A DNA stretch of 64,000 nucleotides from Escherichia coli (GTDB taxonomy: Bacteria > Pseudomonadota > Gammaproteobacteria > Enterobacterales > Enterobacteriaceae). Position 1 is the first letter of the stretch. Each line of letters begins with the position of its first letter. This document shows positions 12,422 through 55,935 of this stretch, one piece after another. A program made the translations under genes and the position numbers. Below the pieces are notes generated by a model. That model was not told the origin of the DNA and ran no database searches. It saw only the letters and a list, made by a program, of their open reading frames with translations. Where the stretch lies: assembly GCF_003334815.1 (NCBI RefSeq), contig NZ_QOWO01000016.1. One strand, written 5' to 3'.

Positions 12422-12496
12422 ATGACGTTGTCTCCTTATTTGCAAGAGGTGGCGAAGCGCCGCACTTTTGCCATTATTTCTCACCCCAATAATTAA
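12422..12496 (+). pseudogene. prfC: Displaced native 5' end of prfC (24 codons) left at attL
   Basis: Encodes [22 protein letters not shown] then NN-stop; the first 22 residues match the RF3 N-terminus as I recall it, and the frame breaks exactly at the att core. Confidence 0.7.
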
Positions 12497-12716
12497 GCCC
12501 AAATTAAAGCTCTTTTACTCTTTCAAAATCCTTTCAGTTAATTGAGGTTGAGCTATATAACTCATTTAAATACATTTGGTTATGTAGCTTCTTTAATTGA
12601 AAATTCTTTCATGTAACTTTAAATCGATCAGTTTGCTTTCATCAAAAATCTGTACATATGCTTGTACATAATGTACAAAACAGCAGAGGTGTTTTGCGAT
12701 TTGTACAAGGTGAGTA

Positions 12717-13940
12717 ATGGCGCTGTCTGATGCGTGGTTGCGTTCAGTCGTTGGAAAGGAACGTGATAAGGTTTTGGTTAAATCCGATCGTGATGGTCTG
12801 TCTGTCAGAGTATCACCGAAAGGTCGCGTAGTGTTCCAATATCGTTATCAATGGGCAGGGAAAGGTGAGCGTCTTGATATCGGAACTTACCCGGCAACTG
12901 GATTAAAAGAGGCCAGAGAAGAAGTTATCCGTCTCCGTGGTGAACTTGAGTCAAACCGTAATCCACGATTGGTCAAGCAGGCTGAAAAACGAAAAGCTAC
13001 TGAAGCCATGACGGTAGAGTCTGTGATCCGTGCCTGGTATGAAGCATATTGTGTAAAAAATAAAAAAGGTTCTGAACAGATACTCCGCTCGTTTGAGCTG
13101 CACCTGTTCTCTAAAATCGGGAATATCCCTCACGATGCAGCTACATTGCATGATTGGTTAGAAGTCCTGGAGCCTCTTAGCACTAAGACTCCAGCAATAG
13201 CAGACCGATTGCTAATTAACGCAAAGCAGGCCCATGTCTGGGCGTATAAGAGAAAGCTCATTGAAACTCGCCCGCTGTCGGATATCACGGGTAAAGATAT
13301 GGATATCCGTAAAGGTCAGAAGAAACGGTTTCTGACACATGATGAAATTAAAATCCTTTATGCTGCGATCGATGGTTCTCGAATGGTTCCTAAATACCGG
13401 GCCTTCATTAAGCTATTGCTGCATTTTGGCTGCCGTAGTTCAGAGCTAATTACTGCCAGGGTGGACGATTTTGATTTCATTAATAAGGTATGGACTGTAC
13501 CACCAGAACGACATAAGACTGGAGAGATAACAGGCGAACCGCTAAAGAGGCCCATTATTGAACCGGTGGAGGAGCTTATAAAGAACGCTATCTCTATGAA
13601 CAATGGTTCCGATATGCTTTTTACTAAGGAAGGAAGCAGGGAACCCGTTGGTCGAACATCATTGCAGTCGCTGCCTTACAATTTAATGCAGTACGCATGG
13701 AGGCGTTTGGGGCATCAATTCCCTCATTGGTCTCTTCATGATTTGAGGCGAACAGCACGAACAAACTTTTCTGATCTTACTGCTCCTCATATTGCAGAAA
13801 TAATGCTCGGCCATAAACTGCCAGGGGTTTGGCAGGTTTATGACAAGAGCGATTATCTAGAAGAACAGCGTAAAGCATATCAGGCATGGTGGGAGAGAGT
13901 TGAATCGATCGTTACTTGTACTGGCCCAGAATCTACCTGA
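12717..13940 (+). CDS. Tyrosine integrase (P4-type, DUF4102 arm-binding N-domain)
   Basis: 407 aa; ATG with upstream AAGGTGAG; catalytic-domain residues (R...HDLRRT...Y); adjacent to attL. Confidence 0.85.
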   Translation: MALSDAWLRSVVGKERDKVLVKSDRDGLSVRVSPKGRVVFQYRYQWAGKGERLDIGTYPATGLKEAREEVIRLRGELESNRNPRLVKQAEKRKATEAMTVESVIRAWYEAYCVKNKKGSEQILRSFELHLFSKIGNIPHDAATLHDWLEVLEPLSTKTPAIADRLLINAKQAHVWAYKRKLIETRPLSDITGKDMDIRKGQKKRFLTHDEIKILYAAIDGSRMVPKYRAFIKLLLHFGCRSSELITARVDDFDFINKVWTVPPERHKTGEITGEPLKRPIIEPVEELIKNAISMNNGSDMLFTKEGSREPVGRTSLQSLPYNLMQYAWRRLGHQFPHWSLHDLRRTARTNFSDLTAPHIAEIMLGHKLPGVWQVYDKSDYLEEQRKAYQAWWERVESIVTCTGPEST

Positions 13941-14190
13941 CAGCTTGCGTAGCCCTGACAGTCTGTTTTGAGCGAACAGTGGACATTTTCAATGGCATTC
14001 TTGAGTAGGTTACGCTTAGACCAGAAGTAAGAGGTGATAGAATTATCAACAATACATAAAACATAGGGGATCCTTATTGATTTATTGATCTTGACCAACT
14101 TATGTGATGCAGTATGTCTTTAACTTGTATTACTATTATCTTTATCTTGTTGTTTCTAATAAACTTATCTTATTTCAGAAAGGAGTTTTT

Positions 14191-15891
14191 ATGCATTTAG
14201 TCACGAAATCTTATTTCGATGCCTTTTGCAAAGCATTCGCTGCGCCCTATGAGGAGACCAAAAATTTTGAGGCGTTTGTGAACTATTGTGCTTTTTCAAA
14301 ATACTCAGGCGACAAAGTTGAGGTCAGTGATCTTGTGTATGAAGGCCCGGACCCTGGTATTGATGGCGCATTTTTATTTTTAGACGACAGAGCAATTTTT
14401 TCAACTGAAGAACTTCAGGAGATTTTCCAAAACTCACGTCGCGAGTTTCAAGTTTCATTAATATTCACGCAAGCTAAGTCATCGGAGAAGTGGAGCAAAC
14501 AGGAAATAGACTCTTACATTGCGTCAATAAGAGATTATCTTTCACCAGCGCCACAACAACCCCACAGTGAATATCTAGCGGACTTTAAAAAAATGTTCAA
14601 CTTGATATTTGCTAATATCGGCAGAGTCAAAAATGGCCTTCCAGACTTATACGCATATTTTTTTAGTGCTGCACAAAATACAGAGGCCAGAGAAATAAAA
14701 GCTGCATTTGCATCGGGTGAAAAAAGCTTAAAGTCACTCGGGTTTTCACATGAAACATCCTTCATTATGGCTCACAAAGACATGATTCATGAGCTTTGGC
14801 TTGCTGCGGAAGGTCCAATAGAAGCTAAACTTCCTACAATAGGCTATGCTCCATTCCCAGCGGCCCCTAATATTAATAATGCCTATGTAGCTACAGTCAA
14901 AGCTCGTAGTTTTATTGATTCTATACTTAAAGACAAAAATGGAAACCCTCGAAAAAAATTATTCGAAGAAAATGTTAGAGATTTTCTGGGAATTGATGGT
15001 GACGTAAATTCAGAAATTGCAGGAACACTAGATACTGATGGAAAAAAAGCAAGATTTGGTTTAATGAATAATGGAGTGACAATAGTTGCATCAAGCGTGA
15101 GGCCTGCAGGACAAGAAATTTTTATACGAGATTTTCAAATTGTTAATGGATGTCAAACGTCTAATGTTCTTATATCAAAAGACATTCAAGTAGATGAATC
15201 AGTTAGTTTAATGATTAAATTAATTGAAACCGATGAGCCAGCGATCCTTGATGACATTGTACGAGCTACGAATAGACAATCTAAAGTTGAAGATGCACAG
15301 TTCATTTCAACGCTAAAAAAATTAAGGGAATTAGAGCATTATTTTAATGCTAAAGGTGCTATTGAAGGAAATAAAATTTATTTTGAGAGAAGAAAGGGGC
15401 AGTATAGTTCAGAAAGTATAGCTCCAGTACGCATATTTGATATCAGAGAAGTTGCGCGAGCATATGCTGCTATTGTTATGATGAGACCAGATTATTCCAG
15501 TCGTTATCCAAATAGGTTAACTGGTGACTTACTTAATGAGGTTTTCTCTTCCGATGCCCTCGAGGATGATTATTATATATCTTGCTATTGCTTGTATAGG
15601 CTAAAGGCTCTTATCTCAAATAAGAGGTTTGATGGGAAGTATTCAAAATTACGCTGGCATATTCTAACTGCTGCGTCAAAATACTGTGGTAATAATTATA
15701 AGGTTTGGGGGTTCAAAAATAAAAATGAAGCTCTTCATAACTTATTCTCAATGAATGATGGGGAGTGGTTTGAAAAACTTGAGAGTTTAGTAAAAATAGC
15801 TATACCAGATCCGGATATTTCTCGAGACTTACTAAAGTCGCAGCCTTTAACATCAACGATTCTCAAAAGTGTTGATAGCGTACCTAAATAA
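14191..15891 (+). CDS. Large AT-rich cargo protein, possibly AIPR-like abortive-infection family
   Basis: 566 aa from the ATG preceded by AAAGGAG; visibly AT-rich; followed by hairpin GGGAAGCTTATTGCTTCCC. Family assignment is tentative and unverified. Confidence 0.4.
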   Translation: MHLVTKSYFDAFCKAFAAPYEETKNFEAFVNYCAFSKYSGDKVEVSDLVYEGPDPGIDGAFLFLDDRAIFSTEELQEIFQNSRREFQVSLIFTQAKSSEKWSKQEIDSYIASIRDYLSPAPQQPHSEYLADFKKMFNLIFANIGRVKNGLPDLYAYFFSAAQNTEAREIKAAFASGEKSLKSLGFSHETSFIMAHKDMIHELWLAAEGPIEAKLPTIGYAPFPAAPNINNAYVATVKARSFIDSILKDKNGNPRKKLFEENVRDFLGIDGDVNSEIAGTLDTDGKKARFGLMNNGVTIVASSVRPAGQEIFIRDFQIVNGCQTSNVLISKDIQVDESVSLMIKLIETDEPAILDDIVRATNRQSKVEDAQFISTLKKLRELEHYFNAKGAIEGNKIYFERRKGQYSSESIAPVRIFDIREVARAYAAIVMMRPDYSSRYPNRLTGDLLNEVFSSDALEDDYYISCYCLYRLKALISNKRFDGKYSKLRWHILTAASKYCGNNYKVWGFKNKNEALHNLFSMNDGEWFEKLESLVKIAIPDPDISRDLLKSQPLTSTILKSVDSVPK

Positions 15892-16129: not shown

Positions 16130-16324
16130 TTACTCAATAACTCCAGCAAATCTGTATATCTTGCATGATGCCCATTTATTTGGGCAGGATTTAATATCAG
16201 GATCTGGAAAGTCAGGCCTGTATTTCTGGCCAGTTCTCCTGTTTACGCTGTTCCAGCGAAGAACAGTCGATACTGAAACGCCACAGAAGTCGGCGACTTG
16301 TTTAGTTGTCATTAAGTTGTTCAT
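16130..16324 (-). CDS. AlpA-family HTH regulator / excisionase-like protein
   Basis: 64 aa with an MerR/AlpA-like HTH (TTKQVADFCGVSVSTVLRW). Confidence 0.6.
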   Translation of the reverse strand: MNNLMTTKQVADFCGVSVSTVLRWNSVNRRTGQKYRPDFPDPDIKSCPNKWASCKIYRFAGVIE

Positions 16325-16944
16325 TACTTCACCTCCTGCGGCGGCTCCGGTAGCGGCATCCAGTGGGTTACTTTCGATGCCGGTTCTTCCCCATCGTCAG
16401 TAACTGCCCACCATTTGTTTCTCGACCAATCGTAATACCCTTCGAAGGTATCGCACTCAGTCCAGCCGTAAGGCTTCCCCCAACACCAAACATACTGTTT
16501 ATCGTTCGGCATTCGCTCACTACAGCTTATCCAACCATCCGGAGTTACCGGAGAGTTGCCCGACAGCTTGTTCAACTTGTAAGTCTGGCTTACAGGTTCG
16601 GCACCATGAAGCATGGCGGCGCGGCAGGCGTTCCAGCCTTCATTAAAACCGACTATGCCATTATTTAAAGACGGACGAGCATCTGGCACCACCGGCACTG
16701 GCTTGGCTATATATAGCGGCTGAACATACCAGCCCTTTGATAACCAACTGTCAGCAATGTTTTTACTCCTCGTTATTGCCGGAATACCTAAGCCATTTTC
16801 TGAATGCAGCCATGCCACCGGCTCCTCTTCTAGCGATGCCAGAGCAATTTCATAAGCACGGCGCTCAATATCGTCTCGAACCTCTAGGCTGCTGATTCGT
16901 TCTTTGATTTCTTTAATCAGTTCTTTATTGGTAAATGTGGTCAT
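16324..16944 (-). CDS. DUF551 phage protein
   Basis: 206 aa with C-terminal signature ...KVTHWMPLPEPP typical of DUF551. Confidence 0.5.
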   Translation of the reverse strand: MTTFTNKELIKEIKERISSLEVRDDIERRAYEIALASLEEEPVAWLHSENGLGIPAITRSKNIADSWLSKGWYVQPLYIAKPVPVVPDARPSLNNGIVGFNEGWNACRAAMLHGAEPVSQTYKLNKLSGNSPVTPDGWISCSERMPNDKQYVWCWGKPYGWTECDTFEGYYDWSRNKWWAVTDDGEEPASKVTHWMPLPEPPQEVK

Positions 16945-17306
16945 TATGCTCCAGCCTCCGGTGCTTTTGGCATTACTGCCCAGTGAGTGATATTGACGTT
17001 TTCAAGGTCCCCGACCTGAAATGTCCACTGCCATTCTCCGGTTTCTTTTTGTCCCCAGGTGTACCATAGAGAACGCCAGCCAATCAGCCAGCCTTCTCCA
17101 TTAGCATCAAATAACAGAACACTTTCATTTGCTGGTGGCAGTTCAGCTGACACTGGTATTATTTTGTTTTCCAGTGCCGCACATTTAGCTTCAAGCGCGT
17201 CGAATTTACGTACCAGGTACTCAGCATTTGTTTCGTTCACTTTCAGATCTCGCGGTACACATTTCCCGCGAAGAAACCCTTCCATTTCGAAAACATTCAT
17301 GCGCAT
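16944..17306 (-). CDS. Phage hypothetical protein (DUF551-like C-terminus)
   Basis: 120 aa; C-terminal ITHWAVMPKAPE; start overlaps the stop of the upstream gene. Confidence 0.4.
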   Translation of the reverse strand: MRMNVFEMEGFLRGKCVPRDLKVNETNAEYLVRKFDALEAKCAALENKIIPVSAELPPANESVLLFDANGEGWLIGWRSLWYTWGQKETGEWQWTFQVGDLENVNITHWAVMPKAPEAGA

Positions 17307-17833
17307 TTGCGTAACTCCGATAAATCGTTAAAACGTTCCATAAACATCCCGTAGGCATGACCCGGTGCCAGTGGAATCACGTTGAACATCTCTGTTGCCG
17401 GGATGCCTTCCAGTACAGGCCAGAAAGAGCCATCATCAAGCCCGAGATCGCGGCGTTCGGTTGCCAGCATGATGAGATCGGCATATTTCACAGGCGTACT
17501 CATAACTGGGGGTAACCCGTATTTCTCACGGATTACGGCGTCTATTTTTTCTTCCATCCGTTTATAGTCAGGAAGAAGTCGTTTCAGTGGTGCGGGGATG
17601 TCCTGGCAATATGCTTCTGTTGCATCATGCATTAACGCTTCAAAAGCAAATTCCTGCGGTACCAGCTGGCTGCAAAGCACCGCATGTTGGGCGACGCTGT
17701 AGAAGTGTGAAAGATGCCCTGCAAAGCGACAGATATTTGAAAGGGAAACCGCGATATCGTTAATAACGATGTCGTCTTTATTTATCTTGTCATAATAAAA
17801 ATGCTTCCCGGAAAAAGTTTTAATAAATGACAT
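17297..17833 (-). CDS. HD-domain phosphohydrolase (YfdR-like 5'-deoxynucleotidase)
   Basis: About 178 aa from MSFIKTF; HD motif region (HD...SVAQHAV...D). Confidence 0.6.
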   Translation of the reverse strand: MSFIKTFSGKHFYYDKINKDDIVINDIAVSLSNICRFAGHLSHFYSVAQHAVLCSQLVPQEFAFEALMHDATEAYCQDIPAPLKRLLPDYKRMEEKIDAVIREKYGLPPVMSTPVKYADLIMLATERRDLGLDDGSFWPVLEGIPATEMFNVIPLAPGHAYGMFMERFNDLSELRKCA

Positions 17834-17961
17834 TTTGTTCTCCACGTTATGTGCGCTGCACCGCACTGAATTTTGGTAAAAAGAAGCCCTTACCATCCGG
17901 CGATTATTGAGTTAATTACGTTTCCATAAATGCCCCCGCAGGGGCATTTGCAGTAATGAAA

Positions 17962-18786
17962 TCAGGCGGTGAAAGTACCAATAAAGGTTTCTACTTTGCT
18001 GTCTTTGAATTTCTCAACAAGCAGATCACGAAATTCGTTAGCCATTTCTTCCTGGACTGCTTCCAACTGAATAATGCGCAGAACCAGTACAGGACGATCG
18101 CCAGTGATAATGCTGAGGCGTAATTTAAACGGACGTTCTTTCAGACCTTCAAACGGAACGCATTTAAATTCAAATGCCACTGGCATAATATCTTTGGTTT
18201 TCGCCTCGACAGACTCCATCAGGGAGCGTTTTCCGCTGAAGTCATTATCTTCAAAATCAGCGGTCTGGTTTGCTTCAATCGTGATTTTACGGACAGCCGC
18301 AGCCGCTTTTGTTGCCTGAATAGCGTCACCATTAGCATCAAAGCCTACAAGGTAGTCGGCCCAGTCTTCAATCCATTCTGCCAGTGACTTCTGGGAGTTA
18401 CGCTCGCCGTTAACAGACAACAGAGCAGAGAACGGTGCTGTCTTTTTCAGTTTGAGAGTGGCGGTGTTATCTGCGTGACCTGGTTCATCAATAGTACCCA
18501 GGTTAAGCACACTGACGGCACGCATATTATCAGCATCGATAAAGCAGCGGGTGCCTTCATCTGCAAGATCTTTAGAATAACGGGTAAAGTCATCGATGCT
18601 GGCAGTGGAAAGCGCACCACGGAAACGGAAGCGATTTAAATTAAATTTTTCCAGATCATGAATGCGGAAGTTCTCAGGCAATGCCACAGCATCGGCACCA
18701 ATCTTACTGATAATTTCATTAACACCCTGAGCAGAAATAAGGGCATGGATTTGATTAATTGCGGTTGCGTCTAAGTTCTGAGACAT
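17962..18786 (-). CDS. Phage protein, YfdQ-like (DUF2303)
   Basis: 274 aa; resembles CPS-53-type prophage proteins. Confidence 0.45.
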
Positions 18787-18851
18787 AATAAGTCCTCACT
18801 ATATAAAGATATTCAGTGATGAGATAAATAATCAGTTTATTAAAAACGATA

Positions 18852-19214
18852 TTAACGACCAGCTGCGCGGAGTTTTCCGTCAGGTTCACCGGCAAGAGTC
18901 AGTAATTGTCCCTGGTCTTCCTGCAGAATAGTCAGGCGACCACCGCGATTGACATACATCGGCGTTTCGGTGGTGTCTTCTTCGGAAATTTTCCCGCGGT
19001 TAGTTGGGCGAACATATGAGAGTTTGTGTTTGATTTTCACACGGTTCTCATCAAACGGTTCGATTTCCAGATTGAGTGAGACCTTCCCTTTGGTTTTCGT
19101 GTTCATCACACCGGAAGCGACTTCACTTAGAACTGCGCCGATTTTGGTTTCAAATACGCCGCCGTCCAGCTCCCCGATAAATGCCTGCACATCAGTACTG
19201 CGTTCACTAGCCAT
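18852..19214 (-). CDS. Phage hypothetical protein
   Basis: About 120 aa from MASERSTD; the longer annotated frame extends through a structured GC-rich region that is probably non-coding. Confidence 0.45.
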   Translation of the reverse strand: MASERSTDVQAFIGELDGGVFETKIGAVLSEVASGVMNTKTKGKVSLNLEIEPFDENRVKIKHKLSYVRPTNRGKISEEDTTETPMYVNRGGRLTILQEDQGQLLTLAGEPDGKLRAAGR

Positions 19215-19650
19215 TTTGCTGCTCCTCATCATATCGACCCTGCAAGGTCGGTTAGTTTCTCCACAAAACAGAGAAGAACACCTGCGGTGGCAGCCGCCCG
19301 GATGGATTGGGTTATGAGCCCGTCGTCCGATGATGCTCTTCTCTGTTTTGTAAAAAGAGCGGTACCAGCCGGAAGCAAGTGTACAAACTGGTACCGCCAA
19401 GACTACACACAGCATAAAGTTGTGGTGCCGGGTGCCTCCCGGTGCCTGGCGAAGGTTGCACACCAGGCTGGTGGGTATCCACAGAAGGTCGACTGTCAGC
19501 CTCAACCTTATCCCGCGTGCGCTGAGCCGCATTCACCACAACGCTAAGGATTCTCTCTGGTTGAAAATACTTAGCTGTTATGTGCCTGTCTTTTCACCAC
19601 TTCAGGCTCGGTGGTATCCTTTTAAGCCCGTATACATAAAAGGAAAATCA
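19215..19650. ncRNA. Candidate structured non-coding region (putative phage sRNA or regulatory leader)
   Basis: No convincing ORF; several perfect stems, e.g. ACAAAACAGAGAAGA...TCTTCTCTGTTTTGT and GCGGTACCAG...CTGGTACCGC. Confidence 0.25.
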
Positions 19651-19651
19651 A

Positions 19652-19897
19652 ATGACTTTTGATGAAAAAGAACTTGATAATGCAATTAATAAAATCATCG
19701 TAACGTCGCTCTTTTCCTGTCTCAGCGACACTCAGCAAAAACAGTTCTACGAATCGGCTTTCAACATGATCGAGCGTTGTTGTTTCTGCGATGCCGACGA
19801 GTTACCTGAAAAAATCAGGAAACAGTTGGCTGATGCTCTTCGAGTGCGACTTTCTGACCAATTTTCTGAAATGTACTCTCCGAATTTGGACAAATAG
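19652..19897 (+). CDS. Phage hypothetical protein
   Basis: 81 aa preceded by AAAGGAAAA; 3' end overlaps a convergent minus-strand ORF. Confidence 0.35.
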   Translation: MTFDEKELDNAINKIIVTSLFSCLSDTQQKQFYESAFNMIERCCFCDADELPEKIRKQLADALRVRLSDQFSEMYSPNLDK

Positions 19898-20087
19898 AAA
19901 AAGGCCATTTCCATTCAGGGTCTGATGGAAAGACTTCAGCCTGTTCTAAAGCACGGCGTAAAGAGAATACAACTCCAGCCATAATCTGATGTTTCCCATT
20001 GGCCCAGCTATCGCCGCTCTGATCTACATGGGCGGCTATGTCGTATGACCAAACGACTTCACAGTTATTGTTTAAAATCTGGACTTT
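19815..20087 (-). CDS. Phage hypothetical protein
   Basis: About 91 aa from MKVQIL with AGGTG 7 nt upstream; convergent overlap with the 19652..19897 ORF, so one of the two may be spurious. Confidence 0.3.
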   Translation of the reverse strand, partial: KVQILNNNCEVVWSYDIAAHVDQSGDSWANGKHQIMAGVVFSLRRALEQAEVFPSDPEWKWPFSICPNSESTFQKIGQKVALEEHQPTVS

Positions 20088-20296
20088 CATTTCATACACC
20101 TGCTTTAACATGAGTGCCTAGTGGCACAACATGACTCAACGAATCATCCTGGACTTCATATGCCCCAGGCGGCTACTTCGTGGGCGTCCTGCCTGTTCGT
20201 TATCTTTGACATAAAATCTAACTTAACTTAGTTTTTAAGGCAAGAGAAAACACCAAACTTTTCTTAGCTTGGTGCCTTAGTTAGAGAAGGGAGGTA

Positions 20297-20923
20297 CTAG
20301 AGTTCGTATTGAACTCCTTTGACTACACCAATGATCAGGCAATTACCATTGATCGGGATGTTGGGATACCGGGGATTCAATGGTACTAAAAACTTTTGAT
20401 GACCATCGATGACTAATTTTTTTACTGTAGCTTCGTTCGTTCCATCAAGTCGAGCAATGACTATTTTTCCATGACGGGGTTCTGCATCAGGATCTACAAT
20501 CACTGTTGCACCTTCTGGTATTGTTGGGAGGCCATTAGGGTTAGTCATGGAGTCGCCTTTAACTTCTAATGCAAATGAGTTATCACCAATCTTTAAAGAT
20601 GTATCTACCCACTTGTCCACTTCACTAAACACTTCTGCTGCCCTGCACTCAGTAAACTGCCCAGCCTGAACCCACGAAATTACAGGAACTCTGCGCATGT
20701 TTGTGACGAGTTTGCCTTCAAACTCAGCACCATAAAGAATGTAATCTATTGACGTATTAAAGAACTTCGCTAATTTCGAAAGTGCTTCCCCGCCAGGGAC
20801 ATTGATGTCTTTTTCCCAGTACCCCACAGCAACGTCACTTACCCCACAAAATTTACCCAATTCTTTCTGGGACGTTCTGGTAACCCTTCTCAGAGCTTTT
20901 ATACGCTGACCAACCGTTTCCAT
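20297..20923 (-). CDS. CI-like prophage repressor (HTH plus S24 LexA-type peptidase)
   Basis: 208 aa; N-terminal XRE HTH; C-terminal S24 motifs (GDSM ... VKKL); divergent from a cro-like gene. Confidence 0.8.
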   Translation of the reverse strand: METVGQRIKALRRVTRTSQKELGKFCGVSDVAVGYWEKDINVPGGEALSKLAKFFNTSIDYILYGAEFEGKLVTNMRRVPVISWVQAGQFTECRAAEVFSEVDKWVDTSLKIGDNSFALEVKGDSMTNPNGLPTIPEGATVIVDPDAEPRHGKIVIARLDGTNEATVKKLVIDGHQKFLVPLNPRYPNIPINGNCLIIGVVKGVQYEL

Positions 20924-20945
20924 AGGAGCACCATTTCTTGAATTG

Positions 20946-21008
20946 CTAAGTAATCTTAGTTTTTATTGACCTAAGATAGATTGATAATTAACATCTAATA
21001 AAACTTAG
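20946..21008. promoter_or_regulatory. Immunity-region operators between cI and cro
   Basis: Inverted-repeat sites CTAAGtaatCTTAG (20946..20959) and CTAATaaaaCTTAG (20995..21008), plus an additional CTAAG half-site. Confidence 0.45.
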
Positions 21009-21021
21009 TTTTGGAGGGTGT

Positions 21022-21222
21022 ATGACAACTGACGATATCGAAAGCTACTTCGGCAGTATTGAGAAAGTTGCTGATTTTTTCGGCATAACAACTGAAGCCG
21101 TTTATCAGTGGCGAAACCGTCCGGGCCGGTTAATTCCAAAAGGACGTGCAGCAGAAGCTGCATATAGAACTTGCGGACGCTTGCCATTTAAACCTGAGCT
21201 TTATGAAAAATCTAATGGATAA
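21022..21222 (+). CDS. Cro-like small HTH regulator
   Basis: 66 aa; divergent from cI. Confidence 0.6.
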   Translation: MTTDDIESYFGSIEKVADFFGITTEAVYQWRNRPGRLIPKGRAAEAAYRTCGRLPFKPELYEKSNG

Positions 21223-21817
21223 ATCGATTAACAGAAACCACAGAACGATGAGGCTAACCGTGGGTAATCATCACTGGAAAATAGAAAAACAGCCTGTGTG
21301 GTACGTGAAAGCTGTCAGAAAAACTATCGCGGCGTTGCCGGGTGGTTACGCTGAAGCGGCTGACTGGCTCGATGTAACAGAAAACGCTTTATTCAACCGC
21401 CTTCGTGCAGATGGCGATCAGATTTTTCCGCTGGGATGGGCAATGGTTTTACAGCGTGCTGGTGGCACTCACTTCATTGCTGATGCTGTGGCGCAGTCTG
21501 CAAATGGCGTCTTTGTGTCTCTTCCTGACGTCGAGGATGTGGACAACGCCGATATTAACCAGCGTCTGCTGGAAGTCATTGAACAGATCGGCAGTTATTC
21601 AAAACAGATTCGTTCAGCAATCGAAGACGGTGTAGTGGAACCGCATGAGAAGACAGCAATTAACGACGAGCTGTATCTCTCAATTTCGAAGCTGCAGGAG
21701 CATGCAGCACTTGTCTACAAAATTTTTTGCATTTCAGAAAGTAATGACGCCCGCGAGTGTGCAGCTCCGGGCGTCGTGGCGTCGATTGCTTCTGGTTGTG
21801 GAGAAACTAACGCATGA
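21203..21817 (+). CDS. Phage regulatory protein (CII/CP76-like?)
   Basis: About 204 aa; positioned downstream of cro as a CII-equivalent; start uncertain. Confidence 0.35.
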
Positions 21818-22152
21818 ACAGTTTAACAACACACTACCGTCGCTCGCAACTGATTGCGCTTCCTGTACCGGGTGGAAAAGCGAAGGTGGAATATTGCTAT
21901 GCAGTGAATGTACCAGGTGACAGGGAAATTGTAACCCACAGCTTTGCAGAGTGGGCTGTGGGTGATTTCAACCGGCAGAAGGAGACAGTCCTTTGCGACA
22001 AGTTAACCGCTGGTTCAAAGATCACTACGGAGTGCCCGTCAGAGTCATTCGTTGGGAGCCGGAAACACAACGGGTTATCTACCTCCGCGAAGGTTATGAG
22101 CATGACTGCTTCAGTCCGCTCGAACAGTTTCGTCGTAAATTCAGGGAAATAG
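21814..22152 (+). CDS. Phage hypothetical protein
   Basis: 112 aa, translationally coupled to flanking genes. Confidence 0.4.
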
Positions 22153-22161
22153 AGGTCGGTC

Positions 22162-36593: not shown

Positions 36594-36595
36594 GT

Positions 36596-36919
36596 ATGCT
36601 TCTGACAATGGAAGAGATTAAAGCCCAACTCCGGCTGGATGAGGATTTCGATGCTGATGACCGCCATCTGCAACTGCTGGCCTGTGCGGCGCAAAAGCGG
36701 ACGGAAACGTATCTGAACCGGAAGCTCTATGCACCGGATGAATCCATTCCGGACAGCGATCCGGACGGACTGCACCTGCCGGATGATATTCGTCTGGGGA
36801 TGCTGATGCTTATCAGCCATTTTTACGAAAACCGCTCGTCGGTTACGGAAGTGGAGAAACTCGACATGCCGCAGAGTTTTGGCTGGCTTGTCGGCCCGTA
36901 CAGGTACTTTCCGCAATGA
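36596..36919 (+). CDS. Head-tail connector (gp6-like)
   Basis: 107 aa; position and size. Confidence 0.55.
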   Translation: MLLTMEEIKAQLRLDEDFDADDRHLQLLACAAQKRTETYLNRKLYAPDESIPDSDPDGLHLPDDIRLGMLMLISHFYENRSSVTEVEKLDMPQSFGWLVGPYRYFPQ

Positions 36920-37798: not shown

Positions 37799-38364
37799 CG
37801 CAGATGAAACTGACGCCTGTTATTGCTGCGCTGCGTGCCCGCTGCCCGTATTTTGAAAACCGGGTGGCAGGTGCGGCACAGTTCAAAAATCTGCCGGAGG
37901 TCGGAAAGCTGAAACTCCCGGCGGCGTATGTGGTACCGGGTGATGACTCTCCTGGAGAAAACAAAAGCCAGACCGACTACTGGCAGGAGCTGAAAGAGGG
38001 CTTCTCCGTGGTTGTCATACTGAGTAACGGGCGTGATGAGCGCGGTCAGTTTGCCTCGTATGATGTGGTGGACGATGTCCGGCAGATGCTCTTTAAGGCC
38101 CTGCTGGGCTGGAACCCGGAAGCGTGCGGTAACCCGATTACCTATGACGGCGGCACGCTGCTGGATCTGAATCGTCATGAGCTGATTTATCAGTTCGATT
38201 TTTCGGTCATCAGCGAGCTGACCGAAGATGATACCCGCCAGCAGGATGATCTGAACAGTCTGGATGAACTGCAAACGCTGGCGATTGATGTTGATTATCT
38301 CGAGCCCGGTAACGGGCCTGACGGCGATATCGAACATCACACCGAAATAACCCTTCCTTCCTGA
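37795..38364 (+). CDS. Tail completion / neck protein (Mu-like)
   Basis: 189 aa; position before the sheath gene. Confidence 0.4.
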   Translation: MTQMKLTPVIAALRARCPYFENRVAGAAQFKNLPEVGKLKLPAAYVVPGDDSPGENKSQTDYWQELKEGFSVVVILSNGRDERGQFASYDVVDDVRQMLFKALLGWNPEACGNPITYDGGTLLDLNRHELIYQFDFSVISELTEDDTRQQDDLNSLDELQTLAIDVDYLEPGNGPDGDIEHHTEITLPS

Positions 38365-38372
38365 GGATCCTC

Positions 38373-38543
38373 ATGTTTGTCAAACCTGTTAAAGGGCGGT
38401 CAGTGCCTGACCCTGCCCGCGGCGACCTTTTGCCCGCCGAAGGGCGAAATGTTGACGAGAACAACTACTGGCTGCGCCGTGAAGCAGCGGGTGATATCCG
38501 GCGCGTGAATAAAAAGGTGAACACCGATGACGATAAGCTTTAA
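38373..38543 (+). CDS. Small phage protein (DUF2635-like)
   Basis: 56 aa frame (MFVKPVKGRSVPDPARGDLL...) immediately upstream of and overlapping the sheath gene start; below the ORF-track size cutoff. Confidence 0.3.
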   Translation: MFVKPVKGRSVPDPARGDLLPAEGRNVDENNYWLRREAAGDIRRVNKKVNTDDDKL

Positions 38544-40023
38544 CTCCATTCCGTCGAATACGCTGGTTCCGCTGTTTTATGCGGAAATGGATAACCAGGC
38601 GGCGAATACTGCACAGGACAGCGGAGCATCGCTGCTGATTGGTCATGCCAGTAACGGTGCAGAGATTGTTGCCAACAGTCTGGTACTGATGCCGTCGGCA
38701 GACTATGCACGCCAGATTTGTGGTGCGGGAAGTCAGCTGGCGCGTATGGTCGAGGCTTATCGCCAGACTGACCCGTTTGGCGAGCTGTATGTGATTGCCG
38801 TTCCTGAATCCACGGGCGCGGCGGCAACGGTTACGCTGACGGTGACCGGGGCGGCAACCGAAACCGGCACGGTGAATGTGTATGTGGGACGTACCCGCGT
38901 GCAGGCACCGGTGACTAACGGCGATAACGTCACGATGATTGCCAGCAGTATCCAGGATGCCATCAATGCCGTTCCGACCCTGCCGTTTACGGCTTCATCT
39001 TCGGCAGGCGTGGTCACACTGACCGCGCGTCATAAGGGGCTTTGCGGGAATGAAATTCCTGTCAGCCTCAATTACTACGGCTTTGGTGGGGGCGAAGTGC
39101 TGCCAGCGGGCGTACAGATTGCCGTGGCGACGGGTACCGCCGGAACGGGTGCTCCGGTTCTCACCGGCGCGGTGGCTGCAATGGCGGATGAGCCGTTTGA
39201 TTATATCGGCCTGCCGTTCAACGACACGGCCTCCGTTAACACGCTGGTGACCGAGATGAACGATACCAGCGGTCGCTGGAGCTATGCGCGTCAGCTGTAT
39301 GGTCATGTGTATACGGCAAAGATCGGCACGCTGTCAGAACTGGTGACCGCAGGTGACCAGTTTAACCAGCAGCACATTACCCTGGCGGGATACGAAAAAG
39401 AGACCCAGACGCCTGCCGACGAGCTGGTGGCAAGCCGTACCGCCCGCGCAGCGGTGTTTATTCGCAACGATCCGGCACGTCCCACGCAGACCGGTGAGCT
39501 GGTGGGTATGCTGCCTGCGCCGAAGGGGAAACGGTTCACGATGACCGAGCAGCAGACCCTGCTGTCTCATGGCGTGGCAACGGCGTATGTCGAAAGCGGG
39601 GTGCTGCGCATTCAGCGTGATGTCACCACGTACAGGAAAAACGCTTACGGTGTTGCGGATAACAGCTACCTCGACAGCGAGACGCTGCATACCAGCGCGT
39701 ATGTGCTGCGCAAACTGAAATCCGTCATTACCAGTAAGTACGGGCGTCACAAGCTTGCCAGCGACGGTACCCGCTTTGGCCCCGGTCAGGCGATTGTCAC
39801 ACCGGCGGTGATCAAAGGGGAACTGCTGGCAACCTACCGTCAGCTTGAGCGTGCGGGGATCGTGGAAAACTACGAACTGTTTAAGCAGTACCTGGTTGTG
39901 GAGCGTGATGCCAGCGATCCGAACCGCCTGAACACGCTGTTCCCGCCTGACTATGTTAACCAGTTGCGTGTCTTTGCCGTGGTTAACCAGTTCCGTCTTC
40001 AGTATTCAGAGGAGTCTGCATAA
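38527..40023 (+). CDS. Contractile tail sheath protein
   Basis: 498 aa; followed by tube, chaperone and tape-measure genes (Mu-like order). Confidence 0.75.
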   Translation: MTISFNSIPSNTLVPLFYAEMDNQAANTAQDSGASLLIGHASNGAEIVANSLVLMPSADYARQICGAGSQLARMVEAYRQTDPFGELYVIAVPESTGAAATVTLTVTGAATETGTVNVYVGRTRVQAPVTNGDNVTMIASSIQDAINAVPTLPFTASSSAGVVTLTARHKGLCGNEIPVSLNYYGFGGGEVLPAGVQIAVATGTAGTGAPVLTGAVAAMADEPFDYIGLPFNDTASVNTLVTEMNDTSGRWSYARQLYGHVYTAKIGTLSELVTAGDQFNQQHITLAGYEKETQTPADELVASRTARAAVFIRNDPARPTQTGELVGMLPAPKGKRFTMTEQQTLLSHGVATAYVESGVLRIQRDVTTYRKNAYGVADNSYLDSETLHTSAYVLRKLKSVITSKYGRHKLASDGTRFGPGQAIVTPAVIKGELLATYRQLERAGIVENYELFKQYLVVERDASDPNRLNTLFPPDYVNQLRVFAVVNQFRLQYSEESA

Positions 40024-40379
40024 TGGCCCGTATCGGGGGAACCTGTTATTTCAAAATTGACGGTCAGCAGCTATCGCTGACCGGCGGCATTGAGGTGCCC
40101 ATGAACAGGACGGTCAATGATGACATCATCGGCCTGGACGGTTCAGTGGACCGCAAGGAAACTCACCGTGCGCCTTATGTCAAAGGGACCTTCAAGGTGC
40201 CGAAGAATTTTCCGGTGAGCAAAATCACCTCGTCTGATGAGATGACCATCACTGCCGAGCTGGCGAACGGTCAGGTCTATGTACTGTCGTCCGCCTGGCT
40301 GCACGGCGAAGCGAACCATAATGCCGAAGAAGGTACGGTTGATCTTGAGTTCCACGGTGAAGAAGGGGATTACCAGTAA
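40023..40379 (+). CDS. Tail tube protein
   Basis: 118 aa; position after sheath. Confidence 0.7.
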   Translation: MARIGGTCYFKIDGQQLSLTGGIEVPMNRTVNDDIIGLDGSVDRKETHRAPYVKGTFKVPKNFPVSKITSSDEMTITAELANGQVYVLSSAWLHGEANHNAEEGTVDLEFHGEEGDYQ

Positions 40380-40648
40380 TGAAAGAGCTTGAGTTAAAGA
40401 AACCGATTACTGCTCATGGCGAGACACTCTCCGTACTGGAGTTTGATGAACCCACCGGGAAGGACGTCCGCGAGCTGGGGTATCCCTACCAGATGAATCA
40501 GGATGAGTCAGTCAGACTTCTGGCGCATGTGGTGTCGAAATACATTGTGCGGCTGGCGAAAGTGCCGCAAAGCTCTGTCGACCAGATGTCTCCGGCAGAC
40601 CTGAATGCAGCGGCGTGGCTTGTGGCCGGTTTTTTCCTCCAGGCCTGA
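40379..40648 (+). CDS. Tail assembly chaperone (short form)
   Basis: 89 aa between tube and tape measure. Confidence 0.6.
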   Translation: MKELELKKPITAHGETLSVLEFDEPTGKDVRELGYPYQMNQDESVRLLAHVVSKYIVRLAKVPQSSVDQMSPADLNAAAWLVAGFFLQA

Positions 40649-40797
40649 CGGCTGAATACCTCACTGATCGCTTCTTTGACTGCGCCAGCTACTGGCGCAT
40701 TAATCCTTTCGAATTGCTGAATATGCCGATCAGTGAAATTCCCTTGCTGGTCAGTCAGGCAAACAGGATAGAGCAGGAGAAACGCACACATGGCTGA
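40379..40797 (+). CDS. Tail assembly chaperone, -1 frameshift fusion product (G/GT-like)
   Basis: Slippery heptamer T TTT TTC at 40630..40636; the -1 frame stays open to 40797 and overlaps the tape-measure start. Confidence 0.45.
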
Positions 40798-51104: not shown

Positions 51105-52042
51105 TTATGTTTGATAAAGAGGTTAACTTAGGAGACAACTCAAACGTAGTAAAAACAGAAGGGAATAACAACACAACAATAATAAATAATTTTGATGAGA
51201 AGTTTATAGGTCACGTTGTAAGATCCATGCTTTATGAAAGTATGCCTTCCTTTCAAGAAGAAGCTAGAAAAAAGATAATTGCGTCAACTGATGAATACAT
51301 TAGAGAGCTAATATCTGAGTTAGTAATTCAAAAAACAGATGCAGATACATTAAACCAAAAACTATCAACGCCTGACGTTCAATACTCTCTTTTTGAATCA
51401 GCTAAATGTTTTGCAAAAAATCCAGAAAGAACAGCAAAATCAACTCTGTTAAATTTAGTTGTAAAAAAAATAAATGAATTGGATGGAGATCATGAAGAGC
51501 TTTCCTCTATCGATCTGGCAATAAACGTCGCTACAAAACTTAGCGTAAAGCAAATAAGGTATATATCTTTAATATACTATATTAAAGATATTGTAAAAAT
51601 ATCACAAGATAGTGCCGGCGCTTATTGCATAATAGATCCTTCAAAAGATACAACAGAAGAAGTTGACGATTTCTTTTTATTCCCAAATGATATAAAAAGG
51701 AACAAGCAGGATGTTTATGATCTTTATATCGATCTATATAACAATCAAATGGATGTTGTATTTAAAGATGAAGAGATTGGCCCAGTTGATTATAGTATGC
51801 TTATAGCATTGGGTTGTATCATTCAACCTGCATTCCCTCAGCGAACATTTGTACAAAATGTAAAGAAAAGAACAGGATTAGATTTAAACGACAGCGAACA
51901 AAAATTAAAGCTATCGACATTCATTGAGAAAATAGAAAAAGCTATAGAGATAGATTCTGTCGATTATATAGTATTAACTACGGTTGGTAGACAAATAGCT
52001 AACGCCTATATATCAACAAGAATGAGATTAGTTAACTTATAA
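51101..52042 (+). CDS. Unknown 313 aa protein (second gene of AT-rich cargo operon; candidate defence/exclusion effector)
   Basis: Translationally coupled to the upstream small gene; N-terminus repeats the GDNSNVV...NNN motif; very AT-rich; no motif I recognise. Confidence 0.5.
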   Translation: MIMFDKEVNLGDNSNVVKTEGNNNTTIINNFDEKFIGHVVRSMLYESMPSFQEEARKKIIASTDEYIRELISELVIQKTDADTLNQKLSTPDVQYSLFESAKCFAKNPERTAKSTLLNLVVKKINELDGDHEELSSIDLAINVATKLSVKQIRYISLIYYIKDIVKISQDSAGAYCIIDPSKDTTEEVDDFFLFPNDIKRNKQDVYDLYIDLYNNQMDVVFKDEEIGPVDYSMLIALGCIIQPAFPQRTFVQNVKKRTGLDLNDSEQKLKLSTFIEKIEKAIEIDSVDYIVLTTVGRQIANAYISTRMRLVNL

Positions 52043-52104
52043 ATATCTCATATTTCTTCATCCAAGGTGGTGGCTTCATCATCCACCGCCTTCTTTTCTG
52101 CTCT

Positions 52105-52215
52105 TAAGAGTAGTGAACAAACCACTCGTCAGCAAACTCCCAAGTATCTTTCAGAGTCTCCTGAACAAAAGCCTTAGCAGAATCCTTATCTGCGGTGTAC
52201 GTAACAGGAAAATCA
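52105..52215 (-). pseudogene. DinI-like 3' fragment
   Basis: Minus-strand translation ...[30 protein letters not shown] matches the DinI C-terminus; no N-terminal part or start. Confidence 0.45.
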
Positions 52216-52445
52216 TCGCTATGGTAGCTTTGACGCTCACCCCCATACCATAAAATATCAAGAGATTACGACTCATTTCCCCATGACTCTTCACCAACCA
52301 ACAGTTCTATCAACATAAGATGTAAACTCATAAACTAAGCAAGATAAAAAAATTAACAGAATTTTGTTGATTTCATGTCTGTGGAGTGTTAACTTAAAAT
52401 GAGACCTGAAGTACTGAAGGTCTTTGACACACTGGAGAAGCAACT

Positions 52446-52805
52446 ATGTTAACGCCGTTTGGTAAGACAGTAAGAAAAATGCGCATAGACTTGGGGCTTA
52501 CGCTTAAAAGCATGGCTGAGGCTATGGGCATGACCTCGTCTTATCTTTCAGCGATCGAAACTGGTAAAAGGGCGGTCACTAAGCCCGTGCTTGATAGCAT
52601 CATTAGCTATTTTAATGCGGATGAAAAACAAAAAGAAAAGCTTATCAGTGCAGCTCGTGACTCTCAGCAGTCAGTAGAGATCAGCTTGTCAGGTAAGAAT
52701 GGCCACGCTCGTGAAGTCGCAATTGCGTTCGCTCGTAGTTTTGATGAATTAAATGAAGAAGACTTCCGTAATTTACGACAGATTTTGAATCGAAAACAGC
52801 AGTAG
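52446..52805 (+). CDS. XRE-family HTH regulator
   Basis: 119 aa with N-terminal HTH (LTLKSMAEAMGMTSSYLSAIETGKR); directly upstream of and coupled to the ImmA-like gene. Confidence 0.65.
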   Translation: MLTPFGKTVRKMRIDLGLTLKSMAEAMGMTSSYLSAIETGKRAVTKPVLDSIISYFNADEKQKEKLISAARDSQQSVEISLSGKNGHAREVAIAFARSFDELNEEDFRNLRQILNRKQQ

Positions 52806-52813
52806 GAGGCGGC

Positions 52814-53335
52814 TTGAGCGGACAAGATTATCGTGTACCTCCGCAGAATCGTGAATCAATACGTTCTATCGTCACATCTCTGCGGAGCGCATTTGGTATT
52901 ACTGGGCTTAAATTCCCTGTAATGGAGGTAATTGAGTTCGCATTGCCTCAGTTGATCCCGGATTTTGAGTTCCACATTGGTGGCATGAAAGAAATGGGAG
53001 AAACGCATGGTCTTACGTACCCACAGGAACATTTATTGATTCTGCGCGAAGACATTTACGAAGGCGCTTTGAATGGGGTAGGGCGAGATAGGATGACTGC
53101 CGCGCATGAATTGGGTCATCTTCTTATGCACAGGAACATCGCATTTGCTCGTTCTGCCCCAGGGGTAAAAATCCGCCCTTTTGAGAGTAGTGAATGGCAA
53201 GCTAAATGTTTTAGTGGTGAGTTATTAGTGCCGGCTATGCATGTCAGTATTTTAAAAGGTATGACGGCTGAGGATGTTGCTAAGGCATGCGGAGTTTCAT
53301 TAGTGGCAGCGCGTTATCAGCTAGACAGAATGTAA
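52814..53335 (+). CDS. ImmA/IrrE-family zinc metallopeptidase
   Basis: 173 aa with HEXXH motif (AAHELGHLLMH); TTG start with AGGAGG 5 nt upstream. Confidence 0.7.
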   Translation: MSGQDYRVPPQNRESIRSIVTSLRSAFGITGLKFPVMEVIEFALPQLIPDFEFHIGGMKEMGETHGLTYPQEHLLILREDIYEGALNGVGRDRMTAAHELGHLLMHRNIAFARSAPGVKIRPFESSEWQAKCFSGELLVPAMHVSILKGMTAEDVAKACGVSLVAARYQLDRM

Positions 53336-53654: not shown

Positions 53655-53679
53655 AAGGCACCTGCGGGTGCCTTTTTTG
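53655..53679 (+). terminator. Intrinsic terminator
   Basis: AGGCACC-tgcg-GGTGCCT stem followed by TTTTTT. Confidence 0.6.
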
Positions 53680-53880
53680 TATCCTCTGACCCGATTGGTG
53701 TCTTGCTGAGCCTGATAACTACCAATTTTTGTTATTACTATTCTACTATCGCTCAATCATGATTGGCGGGAGTTGAAACCGCAGGCACGTCGTATGCAAG
53801 AACGTGCTGCGGCTGGCTGGTGAACTTCCGATAGTGCGAGTATTGAATGATTTCCAGCCGTTACAGATTTTACGTGCTAA

Positions 53881-54129
53881 TTAGTGAACAAACCACTCGT
53901 CAGCAGACTCCCAGGTATCTTTCAGAGTTTCCTGAACAAAAGTTTTAGCTGAATCTTTATCGGCGGTGCGCGTAACAGAAAGGCCATCGTTGCTGGTGGC
54001 TTTTACGATCACCTCTACATCGTCATAACGCTTACTGATGCGTCGAGTTAATTCTTCCTTTAACGCATCCACAGCACCGTTTGGCATTTTAGTCATTTTC
54101 TCTTTAGCTATGCAGATCTCAATACGCAT
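53881..54129 (-). CDS. dinI: DinI-like protein (RecA coprotease modulator)
   Basis: 82 aa; [11 protein letters not shown] ... [17 protein letters not shown] resembles DinI over its whole length. Confidence 0.75.
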
Positions 54130-54348
54130 AAAAATCCCTCTACACTGTGTTTGTATACAGTGTTATTTTTAACTGTATAAATAAACAGTGTCAATGGAAC
54201 AAAGATTGCTGCATGTACAAATGTTCTTTGGCTACAAATACACCTACTGATCATGTTCTGCTATGCTCTGATACCTCCAAAATGTACAATCAGCGGCATG
54301 AATTTTTCTTTGTACATATGATTGTACATAATTAAAGAGACAACAATT

Positions 54349-55935
54349 ATGACAAGCCTTTTGGCCGCAGAGGTAGCGAAAAGAAGAACCTTTGCAATTA
54401 TTTCTCACCCGGACGCCGGTAAAACTACCATCACCGAGAAGGTGCTGCTGTTCGGACAGGCCATTCAGACCGCCGGTACAGTAAAAGGCCGTGGCTCTAA
54501 CCAGCACGCTAAGTCGGACTGGATGGAGATGGAAAAGCAGCGTGGGATCTCCATTACCACGTCTGTGATGCAGTTTCCGTATCACGACTGCCTGGTTAAC
54601 CTGCTCGACACCCCGGGGCACGAAGACTTCTCGGAAGATACCTATCGTACCCTGACGGCGGTGGACTGCTGCCTGATGGTTATCGACGCTGCAAAAGGTG
54701 TTGAAGATCGTACCCGCAAGCTGATGGAAGTTACCCGTCTGCGCGACACGCCGATCCTCACCTTTATGAACAAACTTGACCGTGATATCCGCGACCCGAT
54801 GGAGCTGCTCGATGAAGTTGAGAACGAGCTGAAAATCGGCTGTGCACCGATCACCTGGCCGATTGGCTGCGGCAAGCTGTTTAAAGGCGTTTACCACCTT
54901 TATAAAGATGAAACCTATCTCTATCAGAGCGGTAAAGGCCACACCATTCAGGAAGTCCGCATTGTTAAAGGGCTGAATAACCCGGATCTCGACGCTGCGG
55001 TTGGTGAAGATCTGGCGCAGCAGCTGCGTGATGAACTGGAGCTGGTGAAAGGCGCGTCTAACGAGTTCGACAAAGAATTGTTCCTTGCGGGCGAAATCAC
55101 TCCGGTATTCTTCGGTACTGCGCTGGGTAACTTCGGCGTTGATCATATGCTGGATGGCCTGGTGGAGTGGGCACCTGCGCCGATGCCGCGTCAGACTGAT
55201 ACCCGTACTGTAGAAGCGAGCGAAGACAAATTTACCGGCTTCGTATTTAAAATTCAGGCCAACATGGACCCGAAACACCGTGACCGCGTGGCGTTTATGC
55301 GCGTGGTATCCGGTAAATATGAAAAAGGCATGAAGCTGCGCCAGGTGCGCACTGCGAAAGATGTGGTGATCTCCGACGCGCTGACCTTTATGGCGGGCGA
55401 CCGTTCGCACGTTGAAGAAGCGTATCCGGGCGATATCCTCGGCCTGCATAACCACGGCACTATTCAGATCGGCGACACCTTTACCCAGGGTGAGATGATG
55501 AAGTTCACTGGTATTCCGAACTTCGCGCCGGAACTGTTCCGTCGTATCCGCCTGAAAGATCCGCTGAAGCAAAAACAGCTGCTCAAAGGGCTGGTACAGC
55601 TTTCCGAAGAGGGCGCGGTGCAGGTGTTCCGTCCGATCTCCAACAACGACCTGATCGTTGGTGCAGTTGGTGTGCTGCAGTTTGATGTGGTGGTATCGCG
55701 CCTGAAGAGCGAATACAACGTTGAAGCAGTGTATGAGTCAGTCAACGTTGCCACTGCCCGCTGGGTAGAATGTGCGGACGCGAAGAAATTCGAAGAGTTC
55801 AAGCGTAAGAACGAAAGCCAACTGGCGCTTGATGGCGGCGATAACCTCGCTTACATCGCTACCAGCATGGTAAACCTGCGCCTGGCGCAGGAACGTTATC
55901 CGGACGTTCAGTTCCACCAGACCCGCGAGCATTAA
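54349..55935 (+). CDS. prfC: Peptide chain release factor 3 (with phage-derived 5' end)
   Basis: 529 aa translational GTPase ([13 protein letters not shown]1 motif); first ~17 codons differ from the attL remnant; att core lies within codons 20-24. Confidence 0.9.

Follow-up and report, generated by a model that had tools for sequence, protein, structure and literature searches.

A mosaic SfV-like prophage in prfC of Escherichia coli and the phage-borne start of the release factor 3 gene

The prfC locus

We analysed a 64,000-nucleotide stretch of an Escherichia coli assembly (contig NZ_QOWO01000016.1), hereafter the window, in which prfC, the gene for release factor 3 (RF3), carries a prophage in its 5ʹ end. 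The window is E. coli chromosome, with the host genes rsmC-holD-rimI-yjjG to the left of the prophage and prfC-osmY-yjjU to its right. The prophage is 41,924 bp long, counting one copy of the 14-bp core repeated at its ends. The junctions, attL on the left and attR on the right, hold the following features.

12332..12359, + strand: candidate native prfC promoter TTGCCT-16-TAAAAT, left behind at attL (consensus scan; position weight matrix (PWM) score 11.6, top 0.003% of window positions)
12422..12496, + strand: truncated native 5ʹ end of prfC at attL, a 24-codon remnant made of 22 host codons and a phage-derived Asn-Asn-stop
12473..12486, + strand: attL copy of the core ATTATTTCTCACCC (empty-site alignments in 4,700+ genomes end exactly at 12486)
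12487..12716, + strand: Pʹ arm of attP, with four TGTACA arm-type repeats and an int promoter candidate (joined to the P arm in Ayreon, cdtI and p13P484A-1)
12717..13940, + strand: tyrosine integrase of 407 amino acids, of the cdtI-phage/SXT cluster (Arm-DNA-bind_3, Phage_int_M and Phage_integrase domains)
54195..54348, + strand: P arm of attP, with four TGTACA arm-type repeats, weak prfC promoter candidates and an AAGAG Shine-Dalgarno sequence at 54335-54339
54349..54396, + strand: phage-borne replacement 5ʹ coding segment of prfC, 16 codons, recoded relative to the host copy
54349..55935, + strand: chimeric prfC, encoding an RF3 of 528 amino acids (codons 1-16 from the phage, the next ~5 in the core, the remainder from the host)
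54397..54410, + strand: attR copy of the 14-bp core, an exact repeat

The remnant at attL is identical to the 5ʹ end of K-12 prfC up to the core, and its stop codon lies ~220 bp upstream of int. At attR, the native RF3 N-terminus MTLSPYLQE is replaced by MTSLLAAE. The chimeric protein is one residue shorter than native RF3, and the changes are confined to residues 3-9. A first-pass annotation, made from the letters of the window, had proposed this arrangement, with a remnant that matched the RF3 N-terminus and an intact prfC with a phage-borne N-terminus at attR. Both proposals hold: the translation of 12422-12496 agrees with the empty site of a K-12 derivative (L001), and the 528-codon open reading frame (ORF) at 54349-55935 begins with a segment that is also present in free phages.

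Attachment sites

The core ATTATTTCTCACCC occurs in two exact copies in the window, both on the + strand, at precisely the positions and in the number first annotated. With up to one mismatch allowed, 0.03 matches are expected, and two matches were obtained in 0/100 shuffles. In the host gene the core spans codons 17-22 of E. coli prfC, which encode the I-I-S-H-P strand directly before the P-loop of the RF3 GTPase.

We aligned four sites: the empty site of the K-12 derivative, attL, attR and attP. Three independent sources gave the sequence of attP: phage Ayreon, whose genome derives from virions, phage cdtI, whose genome is circular, and the record p13P484A-1, a circle of 33.7 kb. The K-12 attB consists of the left flank of attL and the right flank of attR, and attP consists of the left side of attR and the right side of attL. 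The predicted attP junction is present in all three sources, and the core is contained in the K-12 empty site. Genomes with an empty site match the attL query only through 12486, the final base of the core. This att anatomy fits integrase-mediated recombination.

The hexamer TGTACA occurs 15 times in the window, and 8 of these occurrences fall within the two ~250-bp arms, at 12651, 12663, 12672 and 12702 in the Pʹ arm and at 54214, 54283, 54311 and 54323 in the P arm. A tandem TGTACATATGNTTGTACATAAT is found in each arm of attP. The TGTACA repeats are likely arm-type integrase (Int) sites, four per arm. Around the core, attP reads AATTATT-TCTCACCCC-AATAATT, a 7-bp inverted repeat about a 9-bp spacer. 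This arrangement suggests that AATTATT and AATAATT are inverted core-type Int sites, and strand exchange would probably take place within TCTCACCC.

Two of the attP records have features of their own. In Ayreon (L003 2479-2500), the base immediately 5ʹ of the 14-bp core is C, not A as in the other attP copies, which raises the identity with attB to 20 bp, TTTGCCATTATTTCTCACCC. This C could be a footprint of earlier exchanges or of mismatch repair. The record p13P484A-1 (L002, NZ_CP019281.1) is listed in RefSeq as a “plasmid”; on this circle attP is intact and is accompanied by the same integrase and by pseudogenes for tail fibres. Rather than a true plasmid, the record probably represents a prfC-site prophage that was excised, or something derived from one, assembled as a circle. 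An Rfam scan of the window returned nothing at the att sites, and only REP-type naRNA4 elements and a tRNA elsewhere. A scan of IMG/VR by integrase alignment for distant attP sites returned 80 loci, all of them relatives with 97-100% identity, mostly starting at int and hence uninformative.

Occurrence in complete E. coli genomes

We surveyed 5,426 complete E. coli genomes. The junction between yjjG and prfC is uninterrupted in 4,717 of them when queried with K-12, and in these prfC has the native K-12-type 5ʹ end. In 700 genomes the gene for this integrase directly follows the prfC remnant next to yjjG. The phage-type 5ʹ end of prfC is found in the same number, 700/5,426, giving a frequency for prfC-site prophages of ~13%; O145:H28 RM13516 is one sequenced strain with this junction. 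There was no sign in these counts of the MTSLLAAE allele without an element, and the MTSLLAAE segment sits next to int inside free phage genomes. The comparison with prophage-free prfC loci thus bears out the first-pass annotation, with the core present in the empty site and the intact sites all of native type. Many of the other prfC-site prophages of E. coli are shorter or rearranged: that of strain 26561 has ~21.7 kb between its junctions, and Z1323CEC0019 has pseudogenes near attR.

The phage-borne start of prfC

To the left of its core, attP carries an AAGAG Shine-Dalgarno sequence, an ATG and 16 codons that specify the beginning of RF3 in recoded form. As long as the phage is free, this start, the core and two phage codons form a mini-ORF. 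Integration joins the phage start, in the same reading frame, to the host gene from codon 23 on. Over the 27 nt beside the core, the phage and host copies differ at 8 positions, and 8/8 differences are synonymous (GTG>GTA, AAG>AAA, CGC>AGA twice, ACT>ACC and GCC>GCA). When 8 substitutions were drawn at random, not one of 200,000 sets was synonymous throughout. Hence, the phage-borne segment evolved as translated RF3 sequence, and its prfC codons have been under purifying selection.

Could the new N-terminus itself impair RF3? In prfC remnants of other genera, Pseudomonas among them, the N-termini are equally variable (for example MSNTPFLSEVSKRRTF), and the replacement peptide lies within that range. 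Since natural RF3 N-termini vary as much, loss of function through the peptide change seems unlikely. In the RefSeq lysogen examined, PGAP starts the chimeric gene at this very ATG and calls prfC intact (WP_000202564.1).

Possible expression of the chimeric gene

The DNA between the right-end cargo and the chimeric ATG contains three features that bear on transcription.

53655..53684, + strand: intrinsic terminator-like hairpin (53655-53674) with a T-run, downstream of the cargo operon, which would block rightward read-through to prfC
53881..54129, - strand: DinI-like gene, the last phage gene before attR (NCBIfam DinI, E = 3e-20; also annotated in cdtI, p13P484A-1 and RefSeq lysogens)
54144..54191: two CTGT-N8-ACAG palindromes, 28 bp apart, which overlap the leftward dinI promoter TTGACA-18-AAAAAT at 54194-54165

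Taken together, the observations point to one history, to which we assign a probability of roughly 0.9: a complete prophage was integrated in prfC by its own tyrosine integrase, and a phage-borne start rebuilt full-length RF3. The integrase would have recombined attP with the 14-bp core in prfC codons 17-22. The gene was thereby split, so that the host promoter, ribosome-binding site and first 22 codons stayed at attL, ending in Asn-Asn-stop, and the phage Shine-Dalgarno sequence, ATG and 16 codons joined the remaining prfC in frame at attR to give full-length RF3. The chimeric gene may then have a weak promoter of its own within the last ~185 bp of phage DNA, and RF3 function would be kept.

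In K-12, unbroken DNA leads from the candidate native promoter to prfC; at attL this candidate now points at the remnant and int. The first-pass annotation had the phage supply both the N-terminus and the promoter. The N-terminus stands. The promoter is a reasonable inference from two hairpins upstream of the chimeric gene and from the SXT precedent described below. In addition to the hairpin at 53655-53674, a second terminator-like hairpin on the + strand, at 54142-54163, coincides with the first of the palindromes. Read-through from upstream phage genes is an unlikely source of prfC transcripts given these two hairpins, and any such transcript must therefore begin within the terminal ~185 bp of phage sequence. 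The best candidates there under a relaxed PWM scan are TTTTCT-17-CATAAT at 54304-54332 (score 7.8, as against 11.6 for the native candidate) and TATGCT-17-TACAAT at 54262-54290 (6.1).

Several observations weigh against our explanation or parts of it. A strict scan for sigma-70 promoters on the + strand between dinI and the chimeric ATG gave no match, and PWM scores of 6.1-7.8 are at chance level for an AT-rich 220-bp stretch. For the Stx1 phage at the prfC site of enterohaemorrhagic E. coli (EHEC), expression of the chimeric gene was stated to be unknown (Ogura et al. 2007, Genome Biol 8:R138, PMC2323221), and our literature searches turned up no later answer on its expression or promoter. 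The synonymous-only divergence could have arisen inside the prfC of another host and not in the phage, and the tandem rare Arg codons AGA-AGA in the phage-borne segment could lower translation. Lastly, the best RefSeq complete E. coli genome covers no more than 80% of the 24.6 kb that we queried (12400-37000). With no genome above this figure, the prophage is therefore a new mosaic.

The alternative that survives best accepts the same structure but reads integration as a knock-down or knock-out of prfC, with no functional phage promoter, tolerated as RF3 is dispensable. The poor promoter scores, the upstream terminators and the removal of the authentic promoter and ribosome-binding site all fit this reading. 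So does the listing of prfC among prophage-“disrupted” genes (Bobay et al. 2013), and so does the viability of ΔprfC E. coli. Here the first-pass annotation, which called RF3 an essential translation factor, was wrong: ΔprfC recipients are routine in SXT work (PMC2791158), and prfC is not on the essential-gene list (Ogura et al. 2007, PMC2323221). However, a Shine-Dalgarno sequence and an ATG have been retained in the phage, together with a copy, in frame and conserved in amino acids, of the 14 residues that precede the junction, and a wholly synonymous set of differences is hard to explain if the segment is untranslated. The junction is maintained in 700 genomes and was annotated as intact in the RefSeq lysogen examined. 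Many real promoters match the consensus poorly, and the related element SXT, as cited in a paper on dusA-specific elements (PMC8409611), was shown experimentally to supply a promoter at the same site. We therefore consider a knock-down or knock-out of prfC unlikely, though by no means far-fetched.

A separate question is whether phage-derived regulation has been imposed on the rebuilt gene. Judged by consensus, the two palindromes resemble tandem LexA boxes; they are found 160-200 bp upstream of the start codon of the chimeric gene, and the sole prfC promoter candidates lie among or beside TGTACA arm-type sites. It is conceivable, but in our judgement doubtful, that the phage-borne 5ʹ region lets the phage control RF3 synthesis through Int occupancy or the SOS response. 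If this were true, the level of RF3 in ~13% of E. coli genomes could be tied to Int or to SOS. RF3 levels affect both termination and post-peptidyl-transfer quality control.

Gene content of the prophage

Between the junctions, the following genes and modules were identified, in addition to int and dinI.

14104..15891, + strand: AbiU (AIPR-family) abortive-infection cargo gene (PADLOC AbiU, E = 3.9e-111; G+C 0.36)
16130..16324, - strand: candidate excisionase of 64 amino acids with a helix-turn-helix (HTH), at the end of the leftward early operon (from the ORF and its sequence; an excisionase is annotated at the equivalent position of cdtI)
16324..30147: lambdoid early, regulatory, replication and lysis modules (CII-like, O-like replication protein, holin, endolysin, Rz)
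20297-20923, - strand: CI-like S24 repressor, in the lambdoid module
26796-27548: Q-like antiterminator, in the lambdoid module
30360..48815, + strand: head and contractile-tail morphogenesis module (HNH, TerS, TerL, portal, protease, major capsid protein, sheath, tube, tape measure, baseplate and fibre; PHROGs)
47971..50491: invertible tail-fibre segment and serine invertase (49901-50491), with alternative fibre and assembly genes on the - strand
50850..53335, + strand: low-G+C cargo at the right end, comprising an ORF of 84 amino acids, an LPO_1073/Vpar_1526-family protein (51101-52042) and a CapH-like HTH protein with a CapP-like metallopeptidase (52446-53335)

The late genes are 97% identical in nucleotide sequence to those of the Shigella phages SfII, SfI, SfIV and SfV. 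The tail-fibre segment is bounded by 20-nt inverted repeats, AAACCTTGGTTTGGGAGAAG, at 47971-47990 and 49856-49875, which are 95% complementary, and the region 47971-50491 looks like a Mu G-segment-like invertible region with a Gin/Cin-type serine invertase. The slot between int and xis, which holds AbiU here, is variable: related prfC prophages (L002, H112-H116) have Dsr1, a CHAT protein with a KAP NTPase, an anti-phage dCTP deaminase or an AIPR protein in this position. It is a variable site for defence genes. The right-end position is occupied by a reverse transcriptase and a TIR protein in p13P484A-1 and by cdtABC in cdtI. CapH/CapP-type pairs are regulators that are usually attached to CBASS-type defence operons.

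Could the element be a prophage remnant that is defective, or else an island that is not a phage, for instance an integrative and conjugative element (ICE) of the SXT/R391 type? The many shortened or rearranged prfC-site prophages, including those of strain 26561 and Z1323CEC0019, are precedents for the former, and the same integrase family also serves ICEs and islands. Nonetheless, all phage modules are present with long intact ORFs: int, the xis candidate, CI, CII, O and Q, lysis, terminase through tail fibre, and the invertase. Neither att arm is damaged, and both correspond to the arms of free phages. No conjugation gene was found among the prophage ORFs run against family libraries. An SXT/R391 ICE, with its conjugative transfer genes and SetCD/SetR backbone, is rejected, since head, tail, lysis and lambdoid regulatory genes of a phage take up the element, and a remnant or island is very improbable. 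We regard the element as a complete temperate prophage, an SfV-like/lambdoid mosaic in which an SfV-like myovirus has an int-attP module of the cdtI type. As for the notion that the 14 bp recur by coincidence or through local duplication, with MTSLLAAE as a natural prfC allele, the shortness of the repeat speaks for it, but it has practically no chance and is refuted by the shuffles, by the MTSLLAAE segment beside int in the attP of free phages, by the match between 700 genomes with the allele and 700 with this integrase at attL, and by the 4,717 uninterrupted sites that align with the native K-12 5ʹ end.

Outside the prophage, a single tRNA-Leu(CAG) gene lies at 9290-9376; the corresponding neighbourhood of K-12 has three, leuQPV. 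Rfam naRNA4 elements (REP/BIME-type) occur at 9516-9598 and, in three tandem copies, at 59292-59571. The tRNA-Leu gene and the naRNA4 repeats look like ordinary host features.

The integrase and its relatives

The int region is 96-97% identical in nucleotide sequence to those of cdtI (96.5%) and Ayreon. At the protein level, identity is 97-99% with the Ints of Ayreon and of Stx1a/Stx2c phages (97-98% for the Stx1a/Stx2c phages of CC119). Homologues with 51-84% identity in Salmonella, Serratia, Pseudomonas and Vibrio are all encoded 200-233 bp downstream of a prfC remnant. The remnants in these four genera end right after FAIISHP, with a stop within 2-7 codons. The integrases of the cdt1 phage and SXT form one cluster with a shared prfC target (Smyshlyaev et al. 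2021, PMC8138268), and our placement of the present Int with IntSXT rests on that study. Homologue clusters that we examined by name as IntSXT candidates were from Pantoea and Pseudomonas, not SXT.

Two more distant relatives were rejected as prfC-site integrases. The integrase of Moraxella phage Mcat15 (41% identity) has no ..SHP-type remnant upstream of its gene. In Mcat15 (L091 1400-1500), a tandem TGTGTACATAAT precedes int and is close to the arm repeats of the window, TTGTACATAAT; judged by this similarity, the arm-site motif may be conserved across the integrase subgroup even where the core target differs. The second, a Klebsiella phage integrase (46% identity), adjoins a lepA fragment. 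The record of this phage, 5 LV-2017 (L092 1-30, KY271399), begins with CTTTTCGATCATCGCTCACATCGAT, which encodes FSIIAHID, residues 7-14 of LepA/EF4. A related integrase thus appears to target the paralogous P-loop-proximal codons of another translational GTPase, with FAIISHP| in prfC and FSIIAHID| in lepA.

A strong candidate int promoter, TTGAGC-17-TACATT (12548-12576; PWM score 12.6), lies upstream of the TGTACA sites of the Pʹ arm. The orphaned host prfC promoter candidate also points towards int, through the 24-codon remnant (12332-12716). Our scan detected no terminator between this candidate and int. Therefore, host transcription may contribute to int expression in the lysogen, and the orphaned prfC promoter may feed it.

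Discussion

What does this locus add to what was known? The phenomenon and the exact junction were already published in 2007, and they are ordinary. What is new here is the mosaic carrier only: an SfV-like myovirus that combines an int-attP module of the cdtI type with AbiU and other cargo. The junction does have consequences for annotation. As the ORF is restored, the label “disrupted” for prfC (Bobay et al. 2013) is misleading, and prfC in such lysogens should be scored as intact. By implication, RF3 synthesis would begin at a phage-supplied start in ~13% of complete E. coli genomes.

Comparison with known systems

The closest precedents are Stx phages. prfC is a catalogued Stx-phage integration site, and the Stx1 phage in prfC of EHEC O103 has the same junction, with a changed short N-terminus and loss of the gene's own ribosome-binding site and promoter (Ogura et al. 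2007, PMC2323221). This phage and the Stx1a/Stx2c phages of CC119 (Microb Genom 2023, PMC10132054) share with the present prophage the host gene, the integrase and the consequence. The present prophage differs from them in its late genes, which are those of an SfV-like myovirus and not lambda-like long-tail genes, and in its cargo of AbiU, LPO_1073 and the CapH/P-like pair. The ~650 bp between the end of Q (27548) and the holin gene (28202) hold one ORF only, of 80 amino acids, and leave no space for stx; with LPO_1073 and the CapH/P-like pair in place of cdtABC at the right end, the prophage is not toxin-converting.

Phages cdtI (NC_009514) and Ayreon (MF807953) have a near-identical int-attP module with the same attP mini-ORF. 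In cdtI, reportedly described by Asakura and colleagues in 2007, a DinI-like gene is likewise the last before attP, and cdtABC stands where the present prophage has other cargo. The similarity of both phages in DNA searches is limited to the int module, whereas the late genes of the present prophage match SfII/SfV-type phages.

SXT/R391 ICEs have the same target: their integration site, 17 bp long, lies in the 5ʹ end of prfC, and their integrase belongs to the cdt1-phage cluster (PMC8138268). SXT gives prfC a new promoter and a new N-terminus (Hochhut & Waldor 1999, as cited in PMC8409611). These ICEs are conjugative elements, in contrast to the present element, which is a tailed phage with no transfer genes found among the ORFs run. 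The SXT core probably covers the same ATTATTTCTCACCCGGA.

A similar strategy is used by the dusA-specific integrative elements (PMC8409611) and by phage 21 and e14 in icd, which also insert in a conserved housekeeping gene and carry a replacement gene end that restores the ORF. The dusA and icd elements differ from the present prophage in target gene and in integrase lineage. The icd phages replace the 3ʹ end of their target, so that no promoter problem arises.

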